NCBI GenBank assembly: GCA_964355095.1
Contig: CAYHCX010000009.1
Coordinates: 1-57,406 of the forward strand
Origin: an uncultured Acidobacterium sp.
Lineage (GTDB): Bacteria; Acidobacteriota; Vicinamibacteria; Vicinamibacterales; UBA2999
Direction of reading: 5' to 3'
DNA: 57,406 nucleotides
The notes below the pieces were generated by a model that made no database searches, was not told the origin of the DNA, and saw nothing but the letters and a program-made list of their open reading frames with translations. This document shows positions 22,734 to 32,504 of this stretch, piece after piece. The number at the start of each line of letters is the position of its first letter. The stretch's first letter is position 1. A program made the translations under genes and the position numbers.

Positions 22734-25189
22734 TCGCGCCGAAGCGCGATCAGCGGATCGAGGTAACTGGCGCGGCGCGCCGGCCAGACGCAGGCGCCGA
22801 CGGCGACCACCGCCAGCAGCAAGGCAATCCCGCCTATGGTCACCGGATCGCCGGCGGTGGTCTGGACCAGGAGCTGCGAGCTCTGGAACAGCCGTCCCAC
22901 GCCGTAGGCGCCGGCGATGCCGATGGTGAGTCCGATGGCCAGCTGCACGAACGATCGTCGCAGGAACAGCCACGTCACCTGCTTGGACTGGGCGCCGAGC
23001 GCCATGCGGACGCCGATCTCCTGCGTCCGTTGCGTCACCGAGTACGCCGTGACCGCGTAGAGACCAACCGCCGACAGTGCCAGCGCGATGAACGCGAAAA
23101 TCGCGAACATCGATCCGAAGATGCGGAACGGCCAGCGCGCCTGCGCCAGTGACTGATCCAGCGTCTGGATGCCGAAAAGCGGGAGGTCGGCATCGATGGC
23201 GCGGACTTCCTCACGCAGGATCGGCGCCATGGCGTTGGGGTCGCCCTGGCTGCGAACCAGCAGTGTCATGAACGCGCGCGGGTCGGTGCGGAACGGCAGG
23301 TACGCCACCGGGTCGGGATCCGGCAGCTGAAAGTCGCGCTGCCGCACGTTTGGCGCAATGCCCACCACCGTCGCGGTCAGCGACAGCGGAATGCCCGTGC
23401 CGGGCGCCGCGGCACCCTGCAGGTCGATGGTCAGCACGATCCGCCGGCCGATCGGGTCTTCGTTGGGGAAATGCAACTGCGCGAACCGCTGGTTGATGAC
23501 CGCGCTTTCGCGGCCGGTCATGCCGTCTTCGTCGGTGAGTCCCCGGCCTCTGATGAGCGGCACGCCGATGGTATCGAAGTAGCGCGGATCGATCGTGAGC
23601 ATGGTGACGTTGGGCGCCTGTTGGCCCTGCTCGAGCGGATTGCCGTCGAGCGTCAAGCGGCGCTGGAATCCGCCCTGCATCGGCGCGTTGCTGGTGACGG
23701 TGACCGACTCGATGCGGCTGTTGGCCTTGAGCCGCTCTTCGACCTGCTGGTAGAACGCCAGTCGCTGCTCCAGCGCCGGGTACTTTCGCGCCGGCAGCGA
23801 CAGCCGCATGACCAGCAGCTTCGAGGTGTCGATGCCGAGGTCGAGGCGGTAGAGGGTCAGGAAGTTCCGCATCATGAACGCCGCGCCGGCCAGCAGCACC
23901 ACCGTCAGCGCCAGCTCGCCGACCATCAACGCGCCGGTCCAGCGGCGGGCGCGCACGCCCGCCGTGCCCGAACGTCCGCCTTCCTTGAGCACCTCGTTCA
24001 CGTCGGTCTTCGAGATATGCAGGGCCGGCGCCAGGCCGAACAGCACGCCGGTGCCGAAGCAGATCGCGGCCAGGTACGCGAACACGCTGCGATCCATCGT
24101 GAACTGGATCCAGTACGGCCGGCCCACGTCCTGGGTGGCCTGGTCGAACAGCCGGATGCCGACCAGCGAAATGGCCAGGCCGATCGCCCCGCTGATCAAC
24201 GCCAGCAGCACGCTTTCGATCAGCAGTTGGCGGATCACCCGCCACCGTGTGGCGCCGAGCGCGATGCGGACCGAGATCTCACGCCCGCGCTGTGTCGAGC
24301 GCGCCAACAGCAGGTTGGCGACGTTGGCGCACGCGATCAGGAGCACGAAGGCCACCGCGCCCATCAACGACAGGAACACGGCGCGGATCGGACCGCCGTT
24401 CATGAACTCGTTGAAGGTCTGTACCTTCGGCTGCACGTCCTTGTTGGTGTCCGGATAGTCGGCGGTGAGCTTACGGGCGAGGTTGATCATCTCGCTCTGC
24501 GCCTGGTCGCGCGTGACGCCGGACCCGAGCCGGCCGAACACCGCGAGGCCGCGTGCGTTGCGCTTCTGATCCTGCAGGCCCGCGATCAACGACAGCGGCT
24601 GCCAGAGGTCGGCATTCTGCGGGAACTTGAACCCCTCGGGCATCACGCCGATCACCACCGACGGGATGTCGTTGATGCGAACGACGCGCCCGAGCACGCC
24701 CGGGTTGCTGCCGTAGCGGTTTTGCCAGATGCCATGCCCGAGCAGGACGACCGGGGCCGCGCCGAAGCGGTCGTCTTCTGGCAGGAAGTCGCGGCCGATC
24801 GCCGGACGCTGGCGCATCACCCCGAAGGCGTTGGCGGTCACGTAGGCGCCGCTGAATTGCTCCGGTAGTTGGCCTTCGTCGCTGACGTTGGCGGGGGCGC
24901 CGCTGTACGCGGCAAGCGACTCGAAGGTCCGCGTTGCCTCGCGCCAGTCGCGGTAGTCCAGGTACGACACGCCCATGTTGCGGTCGCGCACCGGATCGAA
25001 CGAGCCAAGCGCCATGACGCGGTCCGGTTCGTCGATCGGCAAGCCGCGGATCAGCACGGCATTCACGAACGTGAACACCGTGGTGTTGACGCCAATGCCG
25101 AGGGCCAGCGCCAGTGTGGCCACCAGGGTGAACCATCTGTCCTTGACCAGCAGGCGGGCAGCGAAGCGAAGGTCTTCCCAAAATCCCAT
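22730..25189 (-). CDS. ADOP-family duplicated MacB/FtsX-type ABC permease
   Basis: 819 aa with two MacB_PCD+FtsX halves. The N-terminus MGFWEDLRFAARLLVKDRWFT is typical of the family. Confidence 0.85.
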   Translation of the reverse strand: MGFWEDLRFAARLLVKDRWFTLVATLALALGIGVNTTVFTFVNAVLIRGLPIDEPDRVMALGSFDPVRDRNMGVSYLDYRDWREATRTFESLAAYSGAPANVSDEGQLPEQFSGAYVTANAFGVMRQRPAIGRDFLPEDDRFGAAPVVLLGHGIWQNRYGSNPGVLGRVVRINDIPSVVIGVMPEGFKFPQNADLWQPLSLIAGLQDQKRNARGLAVFGRLGSGVTRDQAQSEMINLARKLTADYPDTNKDVQPKVQTFNEFMNGGPIRAVFLSLMGAVAFVLLIACANVANLLLARSTQRGREISVRIALGATRWRVIRQLLIESVLLALISGAIGLAISLVGIRLFDQATQDVGRPYWIQFTMDRSVFAYLAAICFGTGVLFGLAPALHISKTDVNEVLKEGGRSGTAGVRARRWTGALMVGELALTVVLLAGAAFMMRNFLTLYRLDLGIDTSKLLVMRLSLPARKYPALEQRLAFYQQVEERLKANSRIESVTVTSNAPMQGGFQRRLTLDGNPLEQGQQAPNVTMLTIDPRYFDTIGVPLIRGRGLTDEDGMTGRESAVINQRFAQLHFPNEDPIGRRIVLTIDLQGAAAPGTGIPLSLTATVVGIAPNVRQRDFQLPDPDPVAYLPFRTDPRAFMTLLVRSQGDPNAMAPILREEVRAIDADLPLFGIQTLDQSLAQARWPFRIFGSMFAIFAFIALALSAVGLYAVTAYSVTQRTQEIGVRMALGAQSKQVTWLFLRRSFVQLAIGLTIGIAGAYGVGRLFQSSQLLVQTTAGDPVTIGGIALLLAVVAVGACVWPARRASYLDPLIALRRD

Positions 25190-25206
25190 GGCGAACCCTC
25201 TTCCGG

Positions 25207-25240
25207 TCAAGCCCCAAGCCCCAGGGCCCAAGCCTTCAAG
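25207..25240. repeat. heptamer array, one-armed (TCAAGCC/CCAAGCC type)
   Basis: Read directly: tcaagcc ccaagcc ccagggc ccaagcc ttcaag, in a divergent intergenic region. Confidence 0.75.
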
Positions 25241-25309
25241 TTTGTGATGACTTCAGACACCGTTACGGAGAAAAGAGGAGCCGGGTTCCGTTCGGTTACG
25301 ATTCTGGCC

Positions 25310-25819
25310 ATGACCATCCGCCGCGCCGCGGCCGCCGACGCCCCGGGACTGGCCGCCCTGGCTCGCCAGACGTTCTTCGACGCGTTCGCCTCGACCAACG
25401 ACGCCGCCGACATGGCCATCCACCTGGAGCGCGCCTACGGCGTGCCGCAACAGACCACCGAGCTGACCAGCCCCGGCATCATCACCCTGCTGGTGGAGGA
25501 GGGCGGCCAGGCCGTGGCCTATGCGCAGTTGCGGACCGGCCACGTTCCGGACTGCGTTCGCGGTGAGCGGCCCATCGAGCTGTGGCGTTTCTACGTGACG
25601 CGCGAGTGGCATGGCCGCGGCATCGCGCAGGCGTTGATGGATCGCGCGACCGCCGAGGCCCGGGCCGCCGGCGCCGGCACGGTGTGGCTGGGCGTCTGGG
25701 AGCGCAATCCGCGGGCCCTGGCCTTCTACGGCAAATGTGGTTTCGTCGATGTCGGCGAACACGTATTCTTGTTCGGGACCGATCCGCAGACGGATCGCGT
25801 CATGGCCATGCCGCTATGA
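25310..25819 (+). CDS. GNAT-family N-acetyltransferase
   Basis: MTIRRAAAADAPGLAAL.. and the acetyl-CoA motif RFYVTREWHGRGIAQALM. Confidence 0.8.
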   Translation: MTIRRAAAADAPGLAALARQTFFDAFASTNDAADMAIHLERAYGVPQQTTELTSPGIITLLVEEGGQAVAYAQLRTGHVPDCVRGERPIELWRFYVTREWHGRGIAQALMDRATAEARAAGAGTVWLGVWERNPRALAFYGKCGFVDVGEHVFLFGTDPQTDRVMAMPL

Positions 25820-26826
25820 GAAAACGCCGAGTCATCGGATTGAGCATTGTCGCCACCGGACTTATCTGGTTCCAGGTGGCCGGGCGCTTCGAGGCGCGGC
25901 GCATCGACGAGCAGCGCGAATCACGCGCCACCACGGCCACGCGCACCGCCGCCTTGCGCATCGACAGCGATCGCCTCATGGAGGCGGTGACGACGCTGTC
26001 GGATCCGAAATTCGAAGGTCGTGCCGCCGGATCCCCGGGAGGGTTGGCGGCGCGGGCGTGGGTTCTCGAGCGTTTCAAGGGAGTCGGGCTGCAGCCGGTG
26101 TCGGGCAGCTACGTGTTTCCATTCACCTTCACGCGCCTGACGATGAGCGGCCGCGTCAGCGGCGAGGGCGCCAACGTCGTCGGGCTGTGTCTCGGCACCG
26201 ACACCAAGGCGCCGGTGTTCGTGGTGTCGGCGCACTATGACCACCTGGGCGTGCGCGACGGCGCCGTCTACCAGGGTGCGGACGACGACGCGTCGGGCAT
26301 TGCGGTGATGCTGGCGGTGGCCGAGCACTGTCAGCGCACGCCGTTCCGGCGGACGGTGGTGTTTGCCGCTTTTGACGCGGAAGAGGCGGGCCTGCAGGGC
26401 GCGAAGGTGTTCGTGGCGTCGCCGCCGCTGCCGCGGGAGCGCATCGTCCTTAACGTCAACCTCGACATGGTGAGCCGCAACGACAAGCGGGAGATCTTCA
26501 TTGCCGGCACCCATCATTGGCCGCAACTGAAAGCGCCGCTCGATGCGGTCGCCCGCCGGGCGCCCATCACCGTGTTGTTCGGCCACGACAAGCCGGTCGC
26601 GATCGCGGGCGGCGTGGACGATTGGACCAACCAGTCGGACCACGGACCGTTCCACGCCGCGCAGATTCCGTTCATCTATTTCGGCGTCGAGGACCACGCG
26701 GATTATCACAAGCCGACCGACACCGCCGACAAGATCAACCGCGGGTTCTTCGTCGACGTGGCCGAAACGGTGCTCGACGCTGTGCTGCAGCTGGACGCGG
26801 CCACCACGGTGGTGCCGCCCAAGTAG
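25816..26826 (+). CDS. M28-family metallopeptidase
   Basis: SAHYDHLG, GADDDASGIAVML and FAAFDAEEAGLQGA zinc-ligand motifs. ATGA overlap with the GNAT gene. Confidence 0.8.
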   Translation: MRKRRVIGLSIVATGLIWFQVAGRFEARRIDEQRESRATTATRTAALRIDSDRLMEAVTTLSDPKFEGRAAGSPGGLAARAWVLERFKGVGLQPVSGSYVFPFTFTRLTMSGRVSGEGANVVGLCLGTDTKAPVFVVSAHYDHLGVRDGAVYQGADDDASGIAVMLAVAEHCQRTPFRRTVVFAAFDAEEAGLQGAKVFVASPPLPRERIVLNVNLDMVSRNDKREIFIAGTHHWPQLKAPLDAVARRAPITVLFGHDKPVAIAGGVDDWTNQSDHGPFHAAQIPFIYFGVEDHADYHKPTDTADKINRGFFVDVAETVLDAVLQLDAATTVVPPK

Positions 26827-26856
26827 CCGGCCGGTCCACGCCCGGAAGGGGGAGTC

Positions 26857-27030
26857 ATGGAGCAGGCGTTCTTTGACGCGGTGAAGGGCGGCAACCTCGA
26901 CGAGGTGCGGCGGCTTGTTCGCGACCGGCCCGCGCGCGCTGGCGCGCGGGACGCCAACGGCGTCTCCGGCATTCTCATCGCCATCTACAACCGTCGCCCT
27001 GAGGTGGCCGCCTGGCTCAAAAAGGGATGA
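26857..27030 (+). CDS. ankyrin-repeat protein, apparently truncated (57 aa)
   Basis: Strong RBS GGAAGGGGGAG and high G/C at third codon positions. AVKGGNLDEVRRLVRDRPARAGARDANGVSGILIA.. is ANK-like. The stop TGA lies inside the duplicated GGATGATTGGGG end of the RAYT element. Confidence 0.4.
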   Translation: MEQAFFDAVKGGNLDEVRRLVRDRPARAGARDANGVSGILIAIYNRRPEVAAWLKKG

Positions 27031-27034
27031 TTGG

Positions 27035-28118
27035 GGATGATTGGGGTCAGGCCGCGAAATACGCCCTTTTCTACTTCCGCCAGAGCTTTCTCATTGCCCG
27101 CACCCTCTTACTGACGGAGTTTGGGTGCAGCTCAAGGGCGGCCGCGATCTCCGCCAGTTTGTAGCCGTGAACAACATGAGCGCGCAGGATGAGGGAGTCT
27201 CGTTCGCTCTTTGGCCGTTTGTCGTGGCCAAACAGCTCACCTAGCGTGGGTCGCGCGAGTGCCCGGTATCGTCGCGGCAGGGCTGCCCGATAGAGCGTCG
27301 AGCCGATGTGCTCCCGAACAGCCATTTCGAACGACGGCGTACCCGCCGCGAGTCCATTCATGTCAGGCTCTTGGGCTGCGGCGTGTTCGTTCACATACTG
27401 CCGGTAACGCAGGCAGGACTCCGTTCTCGAATCCCCGTCGAACGTCCAATCCAGCCAGTCCAGGCTCAAGAACTCAGGTGCCGGCTCCATTCCGGCGGTC
27501 GCGCGATAACTGCTCCACGGCCAATCCGCGGCTCGCTCCACCAGGCCCGCTTCGACCGGGTTGCGCACGACGTAGCGATTGGCGTCGCGCAGGTAGAAGT
27601 CGCTGTCGATCAGCAGGGAGACAAACCGACCCTCGAACACATGGCCGGTCCGGTGGTGGCGTCGATTAGACGCTTGGGTATAGACGCCGTTGACGAAATG
27701 CATTGCCGACGAGAGGTTGCCCGCCGGCGTGTTCACTATCAGGTGGTAGTGATTGCTCATCAGGCAATACGACTGACACCCCACGTCATAGCGCGCGGAC
27801 GCGTCCTGGACGGCATCAAGAAACTGCCGACGGTCGACATCGTCTTCGAAGATAGACGCCTTTCGATTGCCGCGGGACATCACATGGTAGAGCGCGCCAC
27901 GATATTGAACTCTCGGTCGTCTGGCCATGGCTCGGCATGTTCCAAATTCCGCGCCACACCCGAATCGGTGATTCCGTTGATATTTTCGAGGACAATCTCG
28001 GGAGGGGTTGAGGGGGGTTGAGGAAATTGCGATTGCTGAAGCCGAAATGGAGGGCAATAATTGCGATCGGCTGAAAAGTGGAGAAAGGGCGTATTTCGCG
28101 GCCTGACCCCAATCATCC
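27035..28118. mobile_element. RAYT element bounded by perfect 35-bp inverted repeats
   Basis: GGATGATTGGGGTCAGGCCGCGAAATACGCCCTTT at 27035-27069. Its exact reverse complement is at 28084-28118. An extra direct copy of ATGATTGGGG sits at 27027-27036. Confidence 0.7.
27071..27928 (-). CDS. REP-associated tyrosine transposase (IS200-like Y1/HUH) with a C-terminal DnaA-C-like HTH
   Basis: HUH motif SNHYHLIV and catalytic Tyr region ANRYVVRNPVEAGL. C-terminal RDSLILRAHVVHGYKLAEIAAALELHPNSVSKRV. Start at ATG 27928 (MARRPRVQYRG). Confidence 0.8.
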   Translation of the reverse strand: MARRPRVQYRGALYHVMSRGNRKASIFEDDVDRRQFLDAVQDASARYDVGCQSYCLMSNHYHLIVNTPAGNLSSAMHFVNGVYTQASNRRHHRTGHVFEGRFVSLLIDSDFYLRDANRYVVRNPVEAGLVERAADWPWSSYRATAGMEPAPEFLSLDWLDWTFDGDSRTESCLRYRQYVNEHAAAQEPDMNGLAAGTPSFEMAVREHIGSTLYRAALPRRYRALARPTLGELFGHDKRPKSERDSLILRAHVVHGYKLAEIAAALELHPNSVSKRVRAMRKLWRK

Positions 28119-29204
28119 CTGGGCGAAGTGCCGGTAGGCGGAGAGGGTGCCTTCGACGAGGTGCTCGACGTCGAACCGCCCGGCGACACGCTGGCGTCCC
28201 GCCTCGCCGTAGGCGTGGCGAGTGGACGGGTCCTTCAGCAGCTTAACGATGGCCACGGCCAGTGGCGTCGGCTCGCCCGGCTCGACCAGCTCGCCGGTCA
28301 CGCCCGGCACCACCGCCTCGGGGATGCCGCCCGCGCGCGTGCCGACGACCGCCAGGCCCATGGCCATCGCGTCGAGCACCGCCGACCCCAGGCCCTCGGT
28401 GATCGAACTCATCACGAACAGGTCGGCCGACATCATCAGCGACAGCACGTCTTCGCGAAATCCCGGCAGCAGCACGTGTTTCTCGAGCGACCGGTGCTTG
28501 ACCTGCTTCTCCAGCGCCGCGCGCAACTCGCCCTCGCCGAAGATCACCAGGCGCGCGTCCGGCACCTCCCGCAGCACCGCCGGCATGGCGTCGATCAGGT
28601 GCCTCTGGCCCTTGTGCCCGACGAGCGCACCGACGTTCACGATTACCGGCACGCCGTGCGGCAGCCAGTACTCCGCGTGCAGGTCCGCCGCCTGCCGATG
28701 CGCGATCTTTCCGACGTCGATGCCGTCGTGCACCACGACGATGCGGTCCGTGGGAATGCCGTCGTGGACCAGAATGTCGCGGATGGCCGTCGACGCGGCA
28801 ATGAAGCCGTCGACTTGCCGGTACTTCCACTGCGAGAACGCGTTGCCTTGCAGATGAAAATCCACGCGCCGCGAGACGACGATCTTCGGGCGCGGCACCG
28901 GCGCGCTGAACGACAGGCCCAGCGACGCCATGGCCACCGCATGCGGGTCGTGGGCATGCACGATCGCCGGCCGCCATTGCCGCACGATGCGCGACAGCTT
29001 CCAGGCCGCGGCCAGATCGATCTCGTTCACCGGCGCCAGCGGCACCAGGTCGGGACCCTCGGACGCGCGTCGATAGAGCTCACCCTCGGGGTGCGCGACG
29101 AGCACCGCCCGGTGACCTCGCGCCCGAAGGCCGAGCACGGTCAGGAGGACTTGTTGCTGTCCTCCGCGCCACGTTCGCGCGGTGTCGATGTGGAGGGCGA
29201 ACAC
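28113..29204 (-). CDS. GT4-family (group 1) glycosyltransferase
   Basis: N-terminus ALHIDTARTWRGGQQQV and C-terminus ITEGLGSAVLDAMAMGLAVVGTRAGGIPE. The stop codon is inside the right IR of the RAYT element. Confidence 0.85.
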   Translation of the reverse strand: MFALHIDTARTWRGGQQQVLLTVLGLRARGHRAVLVAHPEGELYRRASEGPDLVPLAPVNEIDLAAAWKLSRIVRQWRPAIVHAHDPHAVAMASLGLSFSAPVPRPKIVVSRRVDFHLQGNAFSQWKYRQVDGFIAASTAIRDILVHDGIPTDRIVVVHDGIDVGKIAHRQAADLHAEYWLPHGVPVIVNVGALVGHKGQRHLIDAMPAVLREVPDARLVIFGEGELRAALEKQVKHRSLEKHVLLPGFREDVLSLMMSADLFVMSSITEGLGSAVLDAMAMGLAVVGTRAGGIPEAVVPGVTGELVEPGEPTPLAVAIVKLLKDPSTRHAYGEAGRQRVAGRFDVEHLVEGTLSAYRHFAQG

Positions 29205-29947
29205 AGTTCCCAGAGTTTCGCGAACTTGAGGCCGACGTACCGCGCGTTCATCGCCGAGACGATCAGCCCCGGGACCCCGTCGCGGAAGCCGCCACGGAGC
29301 AGGTAATTACGGAGAAACGCCGCCGGCGGATGCACCGCCAGGTCGAGCCAGCCCGCGCGCCGCCCATCCTCGAACATCTGGCGCGCCGCCAGCGAGGTGT
29401 AGCGGTCCATCGTCTGCAGGTGATGCGCGAGGTCACGGTAGGCGTAGTGGAGGAGTTCGCCGCGCAAGTCGATCACCGGGCCGTCGGCCTTGACCGACTC
29501 GTGCACGAGACGCCCCGTCCACCGCGCGCGCCGACGGTCGTAGAGACGCAGCTGGTGGTCCGGGTACCAGTCCGTGGACCGGATCCACCGGCCCAGGTGA
29601 AACGTGACGCGCGGCACCCGGTAGCCCGGCGCCTCCGGACCGCGCTGCAGCAGGGCGCGGATCTCGCCGGCGAGCGCCGGCGAGACGCGCTCATCCGCGT
29701 CGAGCGAGAAAATCCAATCGTGGCTGGCCTGCGCCGCGGCGAAGTTCTTCTGCGCGACGTAGCCGGGCCATGGCCGGACGGTCACCTTGTCGGTGAACTC
29801 GCGGGCGATGGCGGCGGTGTCATCGGTGCTCTGGCAGTCAACGACGATGATCTCGTCGGCCCATGACAGGGACTCGAGCGCGGCCCGCAGGTTGGCGGCT
29901 TCGTTGAGGGTGATGACTGTGGCCGTGACGGGCACGGGCCTCATCAT
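29141..29947 (-). CDS. GT2-family glycosyltransferase
   Basis: VTATVITLNEAANL..IIVVDCQSTDDT..SLDADE. Start at ATG 29947. The track extension is translated heptamer repeat. Confidence 0.8.
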   Translation of the reverse strand: MMRPVPVTATVITLNEAANLRAALESLSWADEIIVVDCQSTDDTAAIAREFTDKVTVRPWPGYVAQKNFAAAQASHDWIFSLDADERVSPALAGEIRALLQRGPEAPGYRVPRVTFHLGRWIRSTDWYPDHQLRLYDRRRARWTGRLVHESVKADGPVIDLRGELLHYAYRDLAHHLQTMDRYTSLAARQMFEDGRRAGWLDLAVHPPAAFLRNYLLRGGFRDGVPGLIVSAMNARYVGLKFAKLWELCSPSTSTPRERGAEDSNKSS

Positions 29948-29950
29948 ACG

Positions 29951-30047
29951 GGAAGTTGGAAGTGAGAAGTGAGAAGTGAGAAGTGAGAAGTGAGAAGTGA
30001 GAAGTTGGCACTTCCCCTTCCCCTTCTGACTTCCAACTTCCAACTTC
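29951..30047. repeat. heptamer array / hairpin (GGAAGTT, AGAAGTG x5 .. GACTTCC AACTTCC x2)
   Basis: Fourteen heptamers are in a single phase across both arms and the loop. The last nt is shared with the upstream stop codon. Confidence 0.85.
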
Positions 30048-31646
30048 CTAGAACAGGGGCGACTGCTGGACGGCGGTGTAGTTGACGACCGACTTGGCGT
30101 ATTCGACCAGCGCCAGCAGCTCGCTGTTGCGGGCGACGTTGAGGTCGCGCTGGGCCTGCAGCACGAAGAAGCTGCTGGTCATGCCGGCCTGGTACTTCTT
30201 CTCTTCCGCATCGAGACGGCGTTCGGCCAGCACGCGCGATGAGCGGGTCGCGTCCACGCGCTTGGCGTTGGTTTGCACCTGGCGGCCGTACTCGCGGACC
30301 TGCGTCGTCACCTGGAGCTCGAGGCTTTTGACTTGGCGCTCGGCCTGCGTGTTCTGCAGCCGCGCCCGCGCCAGCTGCGCTTCCTGCGTGGACTTGCCGA
30401 TCGGATAGGCGATGTCCACCTGCAGCGACCAGCCGGGGAAGTCGCCGGCGATGGTCTTGCCGAGCGTGCTGAAGTAGCTCTGCTCCACGCTCGAGACGAT
30501 TGCGCCGGTGGGCAGGCCGGTGATGGGGTCGCGCGCACGGCTCACCTGCAAGCCGCCGGTTGCCCGCGCATTGTAGTTGACCGACGCGTTCACGTCGGGC
30601 AGCGACTGGTTGCGGAAGTAGCGGATGTTGACGTCGTTGATTTCGAGGTTCTTGCGCGCCGCAACCACGTCGGTCCGCTGGCCAAGCGCGTTGTTCACCG
30701 CCGTCTCGACGTCGACCGCCGTCGGCTGGAACGTCACGGCCTCGGTCGGCTCGATCCGTGCCGTCCAGAAGTCCGCACCGCTCGGGTTGAAGACGAGCGC
30801 CCGTAGGGTGTCTTGCGCGCGGTCGATGGCGGCCTCGGCGAGAATCACCGACTCTTCGCGCGTGGCCACTTCGGCCTCGGCCTGGACGATGTCGAGCGGC
30901 GCCATGGTGCCAATCTCGACGCGGGCGCGGTTGTCCTTGAGCGACTGCCGTGCCAGATCGAGCGACTGCCGCTGCACGGCGAGGTTGCCGATGGCGTACA
31001 TCAGGTCGTAGTAGGCGTTGCGCACGTTGCGCACCGTGACCGAGATGGACTGCTGCAGCTGAACGTCTGAAATCTCCTTGTTCTTCTGGCTGACCAGCAG
31101 CTGCTGGCGGGCGCCGTCGATCCGGAAGTTCCGCAGGAGCGGCTGGGTGTAGGTGGCGCTCACCGACGAGTTCAACTGCGGATTGAACGTCGAGAACTGG
31201 TTGTTCGTGGTGCTGCGGCCGTTGTTCCACCGCACGTCGTAGCTGCCGCCGTACCAGGATGTCAGCGACGACACGCCGAAATTGAAGAGCGACTGGCCGC
31301 TGGTGATGCCGGCGGCGGTGCCGCCCGACAGGACACTGGTCGAGGGCTGCGTCGAATCCGCGGTGCTGATGGTGGATACGAAGTTCGGCGTATACGCGGC
31401 CTTGAACTGGTCGGTCGACAAGTCCTGCAGCTGCGGATTGAAGCGCTGGACCTGAAGGTCCAGGTTCTGCTCGATGGCCGTCGCCACCGCATCATCAATG
31501 CTCATCCGCCGGACCGGGCCTTGCGCCGGGGGCGGAGCGGCCGTGGTCTGGGCGTGGACAGGGGACAGCCCAAAACCGGACACTATCGTCGCCACGAGGC
31601 CGGCCGCCACAACCGCCCGGGCGCAAAATCGCTGGTCAAAACGCAT
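30048..31646 (-). CDS. TolC-family outer membrane protein
   Basis: Signal peptide after MRFDQRF.., two OMF repeats, and a TolC-like C-terminal region. Confidence 0.85.
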   Translation of the reverse strand: MRFDQRFCARAVVAAGLVATIVSGFGLSPVHAQTTAAPPPAQGPVRRMSIDDAVATAIEQNLDLQVQRFNPQLQDLSTDQFKAAYTPNFVSTISTADSTQPSTSVLSGGTAAGITSGQSLFNFGVSSLTSWYGGSYDVRWNNGRSTTNNQFSTFNPQLNSSVSATYTQPLLRNFRIDGARQQLLVSQKNKEISDVQLQQSISVTVRNVRNAYYDLMYAIGNLAVQRQSLDLARQSLKDNRARVEIGTMAPLDIVQAEAEVATREESVILAEAAIDRAQDTLRALVFNPSGADFWTARIEPTEAVTFQPTAVDVETAVNNALGQRTDVVAARKNLEINDVNIRYFRNQSLPDVNASVNYNARATGGLQVSRARDPITGLPTGAIVSSVEQSYFSTLGKTIAGDFPGWSLQVDIAYPIGKSTQEAQLARARLQNTQAERQVKSLELQVTTQVREYGRQVQTNAKRVDATRSSRVLAERRLDAEEKKYQAGMTSSFFVLQAQRDLNVARNSELLALVEYAKSVVNYTAVQQSPLF

Positions 31647-31886
31647 CACACTGCTACTCCAATCGAAGGTCAATCGCTGGTCTGAACCCGGGGTGACAGC
31701 AAAAGCGGTACCGCTGGCTCACACGCCTGTTCTCCATCATAGACGTCATGGGGCCGGCAAGGGTTCGGTAAGGGTGTTTGAAACAGCCGCCGTTGGCCGC
31801 CAGCCTTCGCGCCGGCAGAGGATGCCGGCGCTTCGGCTTGGCGACCGCCGTAGCGACTCCAGCCGCCCGGTCGCGTAGGCGGCCGA

Positions 31887-31892
31887 TATACT
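31887..31892 (+). promoter_or_regulatory. TATACT box 8 nt upstream of the pyrE ATG (candidate near-leaderless promoter)
   Basis: Read directly. There is no purine-rich SD between the box and the ATG. Confidence 0.3.
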
Positions 31893-31900
31893 ACCGATCG

Positions 31901-32473
31901 ATGACCGAATCCGACCTGCTGGCCCTGTTTCGCCGCTCGGGCGCGTTGCTTGATGGCCACTTCCGCTTGTCGTCGGGGCTGCACAGCCCCGGGTACCTCC
32001 AGTGCGCGTTGGTCCTCCAGCATCCCGGTGACGCCGAGGCCCTTGGTGCAGCCCTGGGCAACGCCGTGCGCGGGCTGGGCGCCGCCACGGTGCTCTCGCC
32101 GGCCCTCGGCGGCATCGTCATCGGCCAGGAAGTGGGCCGCGCCCTCGGCGTCCGGGCCATCTTCGCGGAACGCCAGGACGGCACGCTGACGCTGCGCCGC
32201 GGCTTCACCCTCGGACCGGGCGAGAAGGTGCTGGTCGTCGAGGACGTGGTGACCACGGGCGGATCGACCCGCGAGACCATGGACGTGGCGCGCGCCGCCG
32301 GCGCCGTGGTGGTCGGCGCCTGCGCCGTCGTCGATCGCAGCGGCGGCAAGCAGGGACTCGACGTGCCCTTTCATGCGCTGCTGCCGATGGTGGTGCCCAC
32401 CTACACCGCGGAGGAGTGCCCTCTCTGCCAACAGGGCTCGCCCGTGGTGAAGCCGGGCTCGCGAAATAAGTAG
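31901..32473 (+). CDS. pyrE: orotate phosphoribosyltransferase
   Basis: LDGHFRLSSGLHSPGYLQC and PRPP loop VLVVEDVVTTGGSTRET. Short PyrE type. Confidence 0.85.
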   Translation: MTESDLLALFRRSGALLDGHFRLSSGLHSPGYLQCALVLQHPGDAEALGAALGNAVRGLGAATVLSPALGGIVIGQEVGRALGVRAIFAERQDGTLTLRRGFTLGPGEKVLVVEDVVTTGGSTRETMDVARAAGAVVVGACAVVDRSGGKQGLDVPFHALLPMVVPTYTAEECPLCQQGSPVVKPGSRNK

Positions 32474-32504
32474 ATCGGGCTGGAGGCGGGGGACGCATGG
32501 CCGA

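Follow-up and report, generated by a model that had tools for sequence, protein, structure and literature searches.

The stretch analysed here (the window: 57,406 nucleotides of an uncultured Acidobacterium sp. assigned to the Vicinamibacterales) derives from contig C9 (CAYHCX010000009.1) of a 4.23-Mb draft genome, designated G000 (212 contigs, 96.7% complete). Near its middle lies a single-gene element that is very probably a TIRtron, that is, a single-copy, chromosomally fixed gene for a TIR-associated tyrosine transposase (TIRYT) with two 36-nt terminal inverted repeats (TIRs), accompanied by a genome-wide family of repeat doublets. TIRtron and TIRYT were coined for genes that resemble REP-associated tyrosine transposases (RAYTs; REP, repetitive extragenic palindrome) and are flanked by TIRs sharing GGGGWSAS (Di Nocera, De Gregorio & Rocco 2013, PMC3733652). 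The features of the element are as follows.

27024..27033, plus strand: extra tandem copy of the outer 10 nt of the repeat (GGGATGATTG), containing the TGA (27028-27030) that ends an ankyrin-repeat gene remnant
27034..27069, plus strand: TIR 3' of the gene, GGGATGATTGGGGTCAGGCCGCGAAATACGCCCTTT, containing GGGGTCAG, which fits GGGGWSAS
27071..27928, minus strand: TIRYT gene, 285 aa, an intact open reading frame (ORF) with NHYHLIV and YVVRNP
27074..27223, minus strand: C-terminal helix-turn-helix (HTH) domain, ~residues 236-285, with the conserved block AHVVHGY.L.EIA..L.LHP
27491-27919, minus strand: Y1/HUH core, ~residues 4-146, placed by Pfam, NCBIfam, PDB, alignment and model
27572-27574, minus strand: Y119, catalytic by homology, invariant in the homologue alignment
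27743-27751, minus strand: HUH motif H60-Y61-H62 (NHYH at residues 59-62)
27929..28083, minus strand: upstream region of the gene, 155 nt, with two motif copies and a 10-nt tandem
28084..28119, minus strand: TIR 5' of the gene, identical to the reverse complement of 27034-27069, with a glycosyltransferase stop codon (28113-28115) inside it

The two arms are 100% complementary over 36 nt (27034-27069 / 28084-28119) and lie 1014 nt apart; an earlier note, made from the letters alone, was right that perfect inverted repeats frame the gene and one nucleotide short in giving their length as 35 bp. GGGGTCAG occupies 27043-27050 and recurs in the opposite arm. As that note had also stated, the window holds no further copy: the 24-nt repeat core has two sites at ≤3 mismatches, and none in 100 shuffles. 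What it had seen as an extra direct copy at the left end is the terminal 10 nt of the repeat duplicated in tandem (GGGATGATTG twice, 27024-27043); the same 10-nt duplication occurs at the repeat copies C11:60188 and C111:11651 of G000, with similar ones at element ends in the related genomes G022, G006, G012 and G018. These recurrent outer-end duplications of 10-15 nt, situated between G runs, are most simply explained by slippage. A single nucleotide separates the stop codon of the gene from the left repeat, and 155 nt separate its ATG from the right repeat.

Within the upstream region, the direct repeats comprise a 10-nt tandem (GGGGTTGAGG twice, 28004-28023) and two copies of a longer motif, AATTGCGATTGCTGAA at 28025-28040 and AATTGCGATCGGCTGAA at 28059-28075; the motif reads ATCGCAATT(A/T) on the gene strand. 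The earlier description of this region was approximate for the longer motif, for which it gave 'AATTGCGATYGCTGAA', the second copy having one additional G relative to the first. A related motif (consensus ~GATCGCAGTTTCTGCAAC, often dyad-symmetric) stands 95-141 nt before the ATG in most of 11 loci that span all four of the enzyme lineages described below and whose upstream regions seem otherwise unrelated by eye. Judged by sequence, the two upstream direct repeats are two copies of this cross-lineage motif. The notion that they are a peculiarity of G000 was rejected, because other lineages have the related motif about as far upstream.

The 285-aa protein matches Pfam Y1_Tnp (E 3.4e-10) and reaches 79.5 bits with NCBIfam REP_Tyr_transpos, whose cut-off is 80, over profile positions 2-146 of 146; no IS200 NCBIfam model matches it at E ≤ 0.1. 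The single significant match in a PDB sequence search is E. coli TnpA_REP (4ER8), in which HYH aligns with HMH and RYVVRNPV with DYIYINPV. An AlphaFold (AF2) model built from 46 homologues (mean pLDDT 87.6) likewise has 4ER8 as its top Foldseek match (E 4.4e-8; TM 0.77 on target; 158 columns), with the IS608, ISDra2 and IS200 transposases as runners-up (E ~1e-4; TM 0.6-0.68 for IS608 and ISDra2). Thus, the Y1/HUH identification made from the motifs is upheld, and by both sequence and fold the protein groups with TnpA_REP and not with IS200 TnpA. Residues H60, Y61, H62, Y119, N123 and P124 are invariant in 46/46 homologues, and dN/dS is 0.07 against an 81%-identical homologue on the metagenome contig L047. 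Database homologues derive from metagenome-assembled genomes of Vicinamibacterales and Acidobacteriota and carry the JGI label 'REP element-mobilizing transposase RayT'; many (P0002, P0004, P0007, P0009 and others) come from contigs of ~1.04-1.13 kb, about as long as the cassette alone, and many metagenome contigs of ~1.07 kb contain nothing but this cassette; assembly breaks at the flanking repeats would be expected to produce such contigs.

The C-terminal ~50 residues form three helices in the AF2 model (240-252, 258-265 and 269-284). Pfam matches to this tail (Sigma70_r4_2 and HTH_30) are both sub-threshold, and the matches among the 46 homologues (HTH_23 in 29/46, HTH_30 in 23/46, Sigma70_r4_2 in 18/46 and HTH_28 in 9/46) are also below Pfam cut-offs. 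Searched against PDB sequences, the last 89 residues gave weak generic HTH matches (MntR, GadX) and nothing significant, and Pfam Bac_DnaA_C was found in 0/46 homologues. The tail had earlier been labelled DnaA-domain-IV-like; that label was rejected as unsupported, the matches being weak ones to generic HTH families.

Judged by motifs and architecture, the TIRtron/TIRYT would equal TnpA_REP subclass 2.1 and RAYT Group 1. Subclass 2.1 is characterised by NH[YF]H, W[EQ]/FQ, Y[IV]xxNP, SS and a C-terminal HTH (Bac_DnaA_C, HTH_23 or HTH_28); most TIRYTs were placed in it, it is tabulated as 'REP: no', and it is given as Group 1 of Bertels (Quentin et al. 2018, PMC6006769). The protein carries NHYH, YVVRNP and WSSY, the last providing the SS after the tyrosine helix, and has FE (in HVFEGRF) in place of WE/FQ at the W-motif position; its HTH_23/HTH_28-like tail and the ~1-2 copies per genome also agree with the subclass (PMC6006769; PMC5581495). 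None of the 46 homologues showed the long, Bac_DnaA_C-like form of the tail and, unlike the tabulated subclass, this enzyme has a clear cognate family of ~45 repeats. The element is also like the TIRtrons of PMC3733652 in having a RAYT-like HUH/Y1 gene between long TIRs that are not self-folding REPs and contain GGGGWSAS (as GGGGTCAG), and in having repeats that form a moderately abundant dispersed family of singles and dimers; some TIRtron TIRs are there assigned to dispersed families arranged as dimers, and a sharply defined acidobacterial TIRYT group is described. That study sampled only cultured Acidobacteria (Koribacter, Terriglobus, Acidobacterium and Granulicella) and no Vicinamibacterales.

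The best structural match is the classical REPIN-RAYT system (E. coli TnpA_REP/4ER8; Pseudomonas Group 2/3; Bertels & Rainey 2011, 2022 preprint), which shares the single-copy, non-jumping Y1 gene, the inverted repeats, and the gene-less extragenic inverted doublets that form long hairpins of an enzyme-specific type. Unlike the classical RAYTs, the arm has no GTAG tag and no stable hairpin, and the enzyme has an extra HTH. The earlier reading of the locus as a minimal REPtron is supported in that this is a RAYT-type gene with its own inverted repeats and not an insertion sequence (IS), and all three tests proposed with it (genome-wide repeat count, grouping of the protein, and copy number with target-site duplications) favoured it; TIRtron, a kind already published, is the more exact name, because the arms are not self-folding REPs and carry GGGGWSAS. 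With the IS200/IS605 elements (IS608, ISDra2 TnpA) the system shares the HUH/Y1 fold and, presumably, single-strand cut-and-rejoin chemistry; unlike them, it has one copy in a fixed position, long perfect TIRs and not distinct subterminal hairpins, no match to IS200 NCBIfam models, and no tnpB partner in the cassette, the other listed ORFs of which were left untested.

Beyond the window, the repeat core has 32 matches in G000 at ≤3 mismatches (reversed control: 0 up to 4 mismatches), and an nhmmer profile search found 45 repeat copies, so that the genome-wide count that the earlier note had proposed does reveal a repeat family. The 45 copies are arranged for the most part as inverted doublets (~18); the others are one tandem pair, three singletons and three partial copies, which stand at contig ends. 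Most doublets are exactly 85 nt long (36 + a loop of ~13 + 36), with the conserved end AGGGATGATTGGGGTCAGG pointing outwards; predicted DNA folding gives ~-50 kcal/mol for the doublet hairpin and -3.6 kcal/mol for a single arm. These gene-less doublets are the counterpart of REPINs. The outer 19 nt of the repeat are nearly invariant and the inner 17 nt have at least nine variants, the commonest of which (GGCCGCGAAAAACGCCC, eight doublets) is one base off the arms that frame the gene. Of 17 doublets compared, 13 have the same inner 17 nt in both arms (a registration artefact accounts for one of the other four), and the mean difference between doublets is 3.5. One loop is common to four doublets in both orientations (C35 and C19:44636 versus C110 and C30); its presence at different sites and in both orientations implies that whole doublets, loop included, were copied to new places. 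By tblastn, G000 has one gene copy of the TIRYT type and one 25%-identical paralogue on C127.

The sites of these repeats are closely tied to stop codons. At least 15 of the repeat ends in G000 fall between -6 and +5 nt relative to a stop codon, in each case that of a long ORF with high G+C content at third codon positions; several genes end on the repeat's own TGA, and the doublets sit where convergent genes meet, between their stop codons. Where outgroups lack a repeat at the orthologous site, the stops there are back-to-back (GCG TAG|CTA CTT, C20) or overlapping (CTATAG, C35). Comparison of filled with empty sites gave no consistent target-site duplication at the gene or at the TIR doublets; many copies with such duplications, which the earlier note had named as the mark of an ordinary active IS, are thus not what G000 holds. 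A CTATAG..CTATAG pair in G017, which might pass for such a duplication, belongs to another, GTAG-type repeat family. A 'TA' target was rejected, the base before AGGG being variable (T, A, C or G); TAG is frequent before the repeat because the stop codon overlaps the repeat's first AG.

Three further observations in G000 concern other repeats and copies. A single 35-nt TIR copy at C20:34703-34737, identical and in the same place in G024, has coding-looking sequence on both sides and could be an in-frame repeat within a gene, like those listed in Di Nocera 2013. A second, unrelated repeat family consists of GTAG/GTGG-tagged hairpins, (A)TGTRGCGTCCGGCTTTAGCCGGAC (e.g., C4:9618-9640, C15:42915-42937 and C47:8008-8077), with 51 copies at ≤3 mismatches and 69 at ≤4 (control 0) and none of the listed copies on C9; by its sequence it looks like a classical GTAG REP, and it and the TIR doublets compete for the same stop-to-stop sites (C35, C30 in G024, G017 and G018). 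The paralogous Y1 gene (C127:8390-8803, 25-26% identical) has inverted hairpins, AGCGATGGCTTCAGCCGTCGCT, on both sides, and appears to be a separate classical REPtron.

The gene occupies a conserved chromosomal slot between two neighbours.

26857..27030, plus strand: ankyrin-repeat gene remnant, 57 aa, what is left of a 216-aa gene after 471 bp were deleted in frame from its interior
28113..29204, minus strand: GT4 glycosyltransferase (GT), the conserved right-hand neighbour, with its stop codon within the repeat in most relatives examined

Full-length enzyme homologues were found in most of the 24 genus genomes searched, with two to five in some relatives, and the order M28-ank-[gene]-GT (M28, an M28 peptidase gene; ank, the ankyrin gene) is kept in nine relatives and one metagenome contig. 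Inverted repeats with a GGGG[T/A]CAG core frame the gene in 11/12 loci (a blast-based scan found none at L017), and the TIR motif of the relatives is GGGG[T/A/C]CAG or a near variant in all. As the TGA of the GT gene lies within the repeat in most loci, the association of gene and repeat with the slot is old. Two genus members have the slot empty and with no trace of the repeat: in G020 (L070, G020:C17) the GT and ank stop codons are 2 nt apart, and in G008 (L069, G008:C6) the GT and M28 stops overlap as CTAG. The gene-bearing element thus uses the same kind of site as the doublets. The 216-aa ankyrin gene is intact in G024 (L013 778-1428); the 21 nt between the ankyrin deletion and the left repeat show two differences from G024 in a region otherwise ~99% identical.

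The genome closest to G000, G024, has a different enzyme in this slot. The two enzymes are 55-56% identical and the cassettes have no detectable nucleotide similarity, whereas the flanks are 96-99% identical (200-nt bins) nearly to the repeats, reaching into the outer repeat on the right and to ~20 nt from it on the left. Farther from the cassette, identity between the two genomes forms a 76-99% mosaic (200-nt bins; positions 23000-32500 of the window versus L068, G024:C16), with identity highest in the block immediately next to the exchanged cassette. Such a mosaic suggests frequent homologous recombination between the G000 and G024 lineages. A maximum-likelihood tree of the slot enzymes resolves four clades with 100/99 support.

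Clade A: G000 and metagenome contig L047
Clade B: G024, G022 and G017
Clade C: G003 and G006
Clade D: G018, G009 and G012, with G001 beside

The GT tree pairs G000 with G024 (100/99 support), in conflict with the enzyme tree. Approximately unbiased (AU) tests reject G000+G024 for the enzyme data (p 1.6e-81) and, for the GT data, reject both G000+L047 (p 2.4e-4) and G024+G022+G017 (p 6e-6). Within lineage A (G000 versus L047), enzyme (81%) and flanks (85-87%) have diverged to a similar degree, and the repeats are nearly identical (GGCCGCGAATAACGCCC). These sequences indicate that old enzyme lineages, at least four and deep, alternate in one slot, the exchanged unit being the cassette from repeat to repeat. 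No donor tract can be named beside the cassette: the GT differences between G000 and G024 are scattered, mostly specific to G000, and not shared with L047. An imported fragment with one anchored and one illegitimate end might account for the 471-bp ankyrin loss. Unlike the classical RAYTs, then, inheritance in this slot is not simply vertical, and several enzyme types occupy one extragenic space; in P. chlororaphis, each RAYT type has its own position (Bertels & Rainey 2022 preprint).

The repeats differ together with the enzymes. In G024 the gene is framed by 55-nt double units, GGGATGATTGGGGTCAGGTCAAGAAAATCACAGTCT then GGGATGATTGGGGACAGG (B-type, as distinct from the A-type single arms of G000), and at least six doublets of that genome have the exact B-type double-unit build. 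A search of G000 for B-type units at ≤2 mismatches gave no match, and GGGGACAGG units are likewise absent. Seventeen G000 repeat sites were compared with G024 via flanks that are 86-99% identical. Six are filled in both genomes (C19:44636, C20:44634, C32, C37, C81 and C110), with A-type single-arm doublets in G000 and B-type double-arm doublets in G024; the singletons C19:40130, C20:34703 and C101 are of the same type in both. At C37, B-type doublets with a homologous loop are present in G022, G017 and G024; the G000 A-type arms are therefore derived, with the loop still recognisably homologous. At C35 and C30, an unrelated GTAG-type palindrome is found in G024 and in G017 or G018, and an A-type doublet in G000, which at C35 lies exactly between the same AGG...CCT as the palindrome. 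Sites are empty in farther genomes (C20 in G022 and G009; C35 in G022, G012 and G009). At C38, G024 has the duplicated outer ends of both arms alone (~23-25 nt each), and at C1:71208-71302 the G000 doublet stands in place of 417 bp of a gene 3' end that is kept by G024, G022, G009 and G012, with only the mini-palindrome TAGGGATCATCCCT at the site in G024; these two G024 sites look like remnants. For the G024 A-type doublet regions L072 and L076 and the A-type singleton region L075 there is no assembled G000 counterpart, and L073 falls on G000 contig ends. Repeat type thus covaries with enzyme lineage at fixed intergenic sites. The conserved slot, the alternation of lineages within it and the switch of repeat type at orthologous sites do not appear in the portions of PMC3733652 examined.

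As the most likely mechanism, the enzyme, whose HUH/Y1 core is of the RAYT/TnpA_REP type of single-strand DNA nuclease-ligases, would recognise the repeats as folded or single-stranded DNA, would cut and rejoin them via Tyr119 with His60 and His62 holding the metal, and would copy or move doublets in trans while its own gene stays put. The outer half of the repeat, AGGGATGATTGGGG[T/A]CAGG, is common to lineages A, B and C and to G001, and the inner half differs by enzyme lineage; the inner half is therefore the probable carrier of lineage-specific recognition. As the outer half is shared and the HTH is highly conserved, the outer half is a candidate HTH binding site. From this pattern of conservation, the Y1 core would read the inner half and the HTH the outer half or the upstream motif, the upstream dyad tied to the latter option being GCAATTATTGC. 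Because sites are re-used by different repeat types, the data suggest that insertion is aimed at resident repeats or hairpins between stop codons, although gene conversion or template switching must be taken seriously as another cause of such re-use, and accounts better for C37. We regard it as possible, at a tentative level, that a swap of the enzyme cassette re-programs the whole hairpin population in place, that the TIRYT overwrites resident repeats, even unrelated palindromes, at a fixed set of stop-to-stop sites, and that the HTH reads the outer and the Y1 core the inner half.

Several points weigh against the main reading, the TIRtron that mobilises its doublets. Enzyme activity and mobilisation are argued from the solved relatives TnpA_REP and IS608 TnpA. 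The co-switch of enzyme and repeats is seen in one close genome pair, and the switch of type at common sites could come from recombination or gene conversion and not from the enzyme. Despite its B-type enzyme, G024 still has four doublets and four singletons of A-type, so that either specificity is not absolute or relics persist. Simple whole-doublet transposition leaves unexplained the homologous loop between differing arms at C37. The clades submitted to AU tests were chosen after the trees had been seen, and the copy counts are lower bounds, the genomes being draft MAGs whose contigs break at repeats; in G000, three contig ends lie inside repeats.

The most probable of the other explanations, still an improbable one, accepts the TIRtron and ascribes the turnover at its sites to recombination between strains and to gene conversion or template switching, with SbcCD-like hairpin nucleases producing the 'footprints'. 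It would fit the G000-G024 mosaic, the changed arms around a homologous loop at C37, and the identity of the two arms within doublets, as intra-palindrome conversion would maintain; the outer arm parts retained at C38 in G024 are as left by deletion of a palindrome's centre, and the 10-nt end duplications between GGG(G) runs fit slippage. However, the common outer repeat would offer merely ~19 nt of homology, and at C35 and C30 the doublet replaced an unrelated GTAG-type palindrome with AGG/CCT alone in common. The occurrence of one doublet with its loop in both orientations at unrelated sites needs movement, and the complete lack of B-type units in G000 implies a strongly biased process.

We consider it unlikely that the element is an ordinary autonomous IS with 36-bp TIRs that transposes as a whole and spreads horizontally, with the doublets as its miniature inverted-repeat transposable elements (MITEs). 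A single-gene unit between TIRs, with short derivatives that have lost its interior, is what an IS and its MITEs classically look like; the unit exchanged between G000 and G024 has the repeats as its limits, at least approximately, the enzyme and host-flank trees conflict, and some relatives have two to five full-length homologues. In addition, among the RAYT groups only Group 6, which clusters with IS200, is rated more IS-like than Group 1 (Bertels 2017, PMC5581495). Yet G000 has one copy, the same slot is occupied in at least 10 genomes with the GT stop codon supplied by the repeat in most, neither gene nor doublets show a target-site duplication against empty sites, and the Y1 fold is nearest to TnpA_REP; purifying selection (the dN/dS given above) and a divergence within lineage A like that of the flanks are also contrary to a freely jumping element. 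Equally doubtful is the view that the hairpins are chiefly host elements (bidirectional terminators or mRNA-stabilising stems), with the gene a domesticated maintenance factor and not a mobiliser. The placement of doublets exactly between convergent stop codons, the very stable hairpins and the fixed, single-copy gene under purifying selection would suit such a role, and REPs have been credited with terminator- or mRNA-stabiliser-like functions (PMC3733652). Against it, orthologous sites are empty without a substitute hairpin (C20 and C35 in the farther genomes named above), sequence types turn over fast between close genomes, and one insertion coincides with the 417-bp loss of a gene 3' end. 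The TIRtron with its doublet family remains the reading that we favour.

The gene and its repeats are by themselves ordinary, being of a kind named in 2013. Their value lies in a natural experiment, in which two genomes with flanks 96-99% identical carry enzymes only ~55% identical, and the doublets at shared intergenic sites are of each genome's own repeat type. The A-type and B-type arms, the outer half as a candidate HTH site and the back-to-back stop codons as candidate targets would provide substrates for biochemistry. For a subclass that has been tabulated without repeats (PMC6006769), this is correlative in-vivo evidence that the TIRYT determines the repeats of its genome, and it qualifies the view that RAYTs and their repeats are inherited purely vertically, with each type at its own position. 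The overwriting of resident repeats, if true, would amount to targeted replacement, an activity without a described precedent among REP/RAYT systems.

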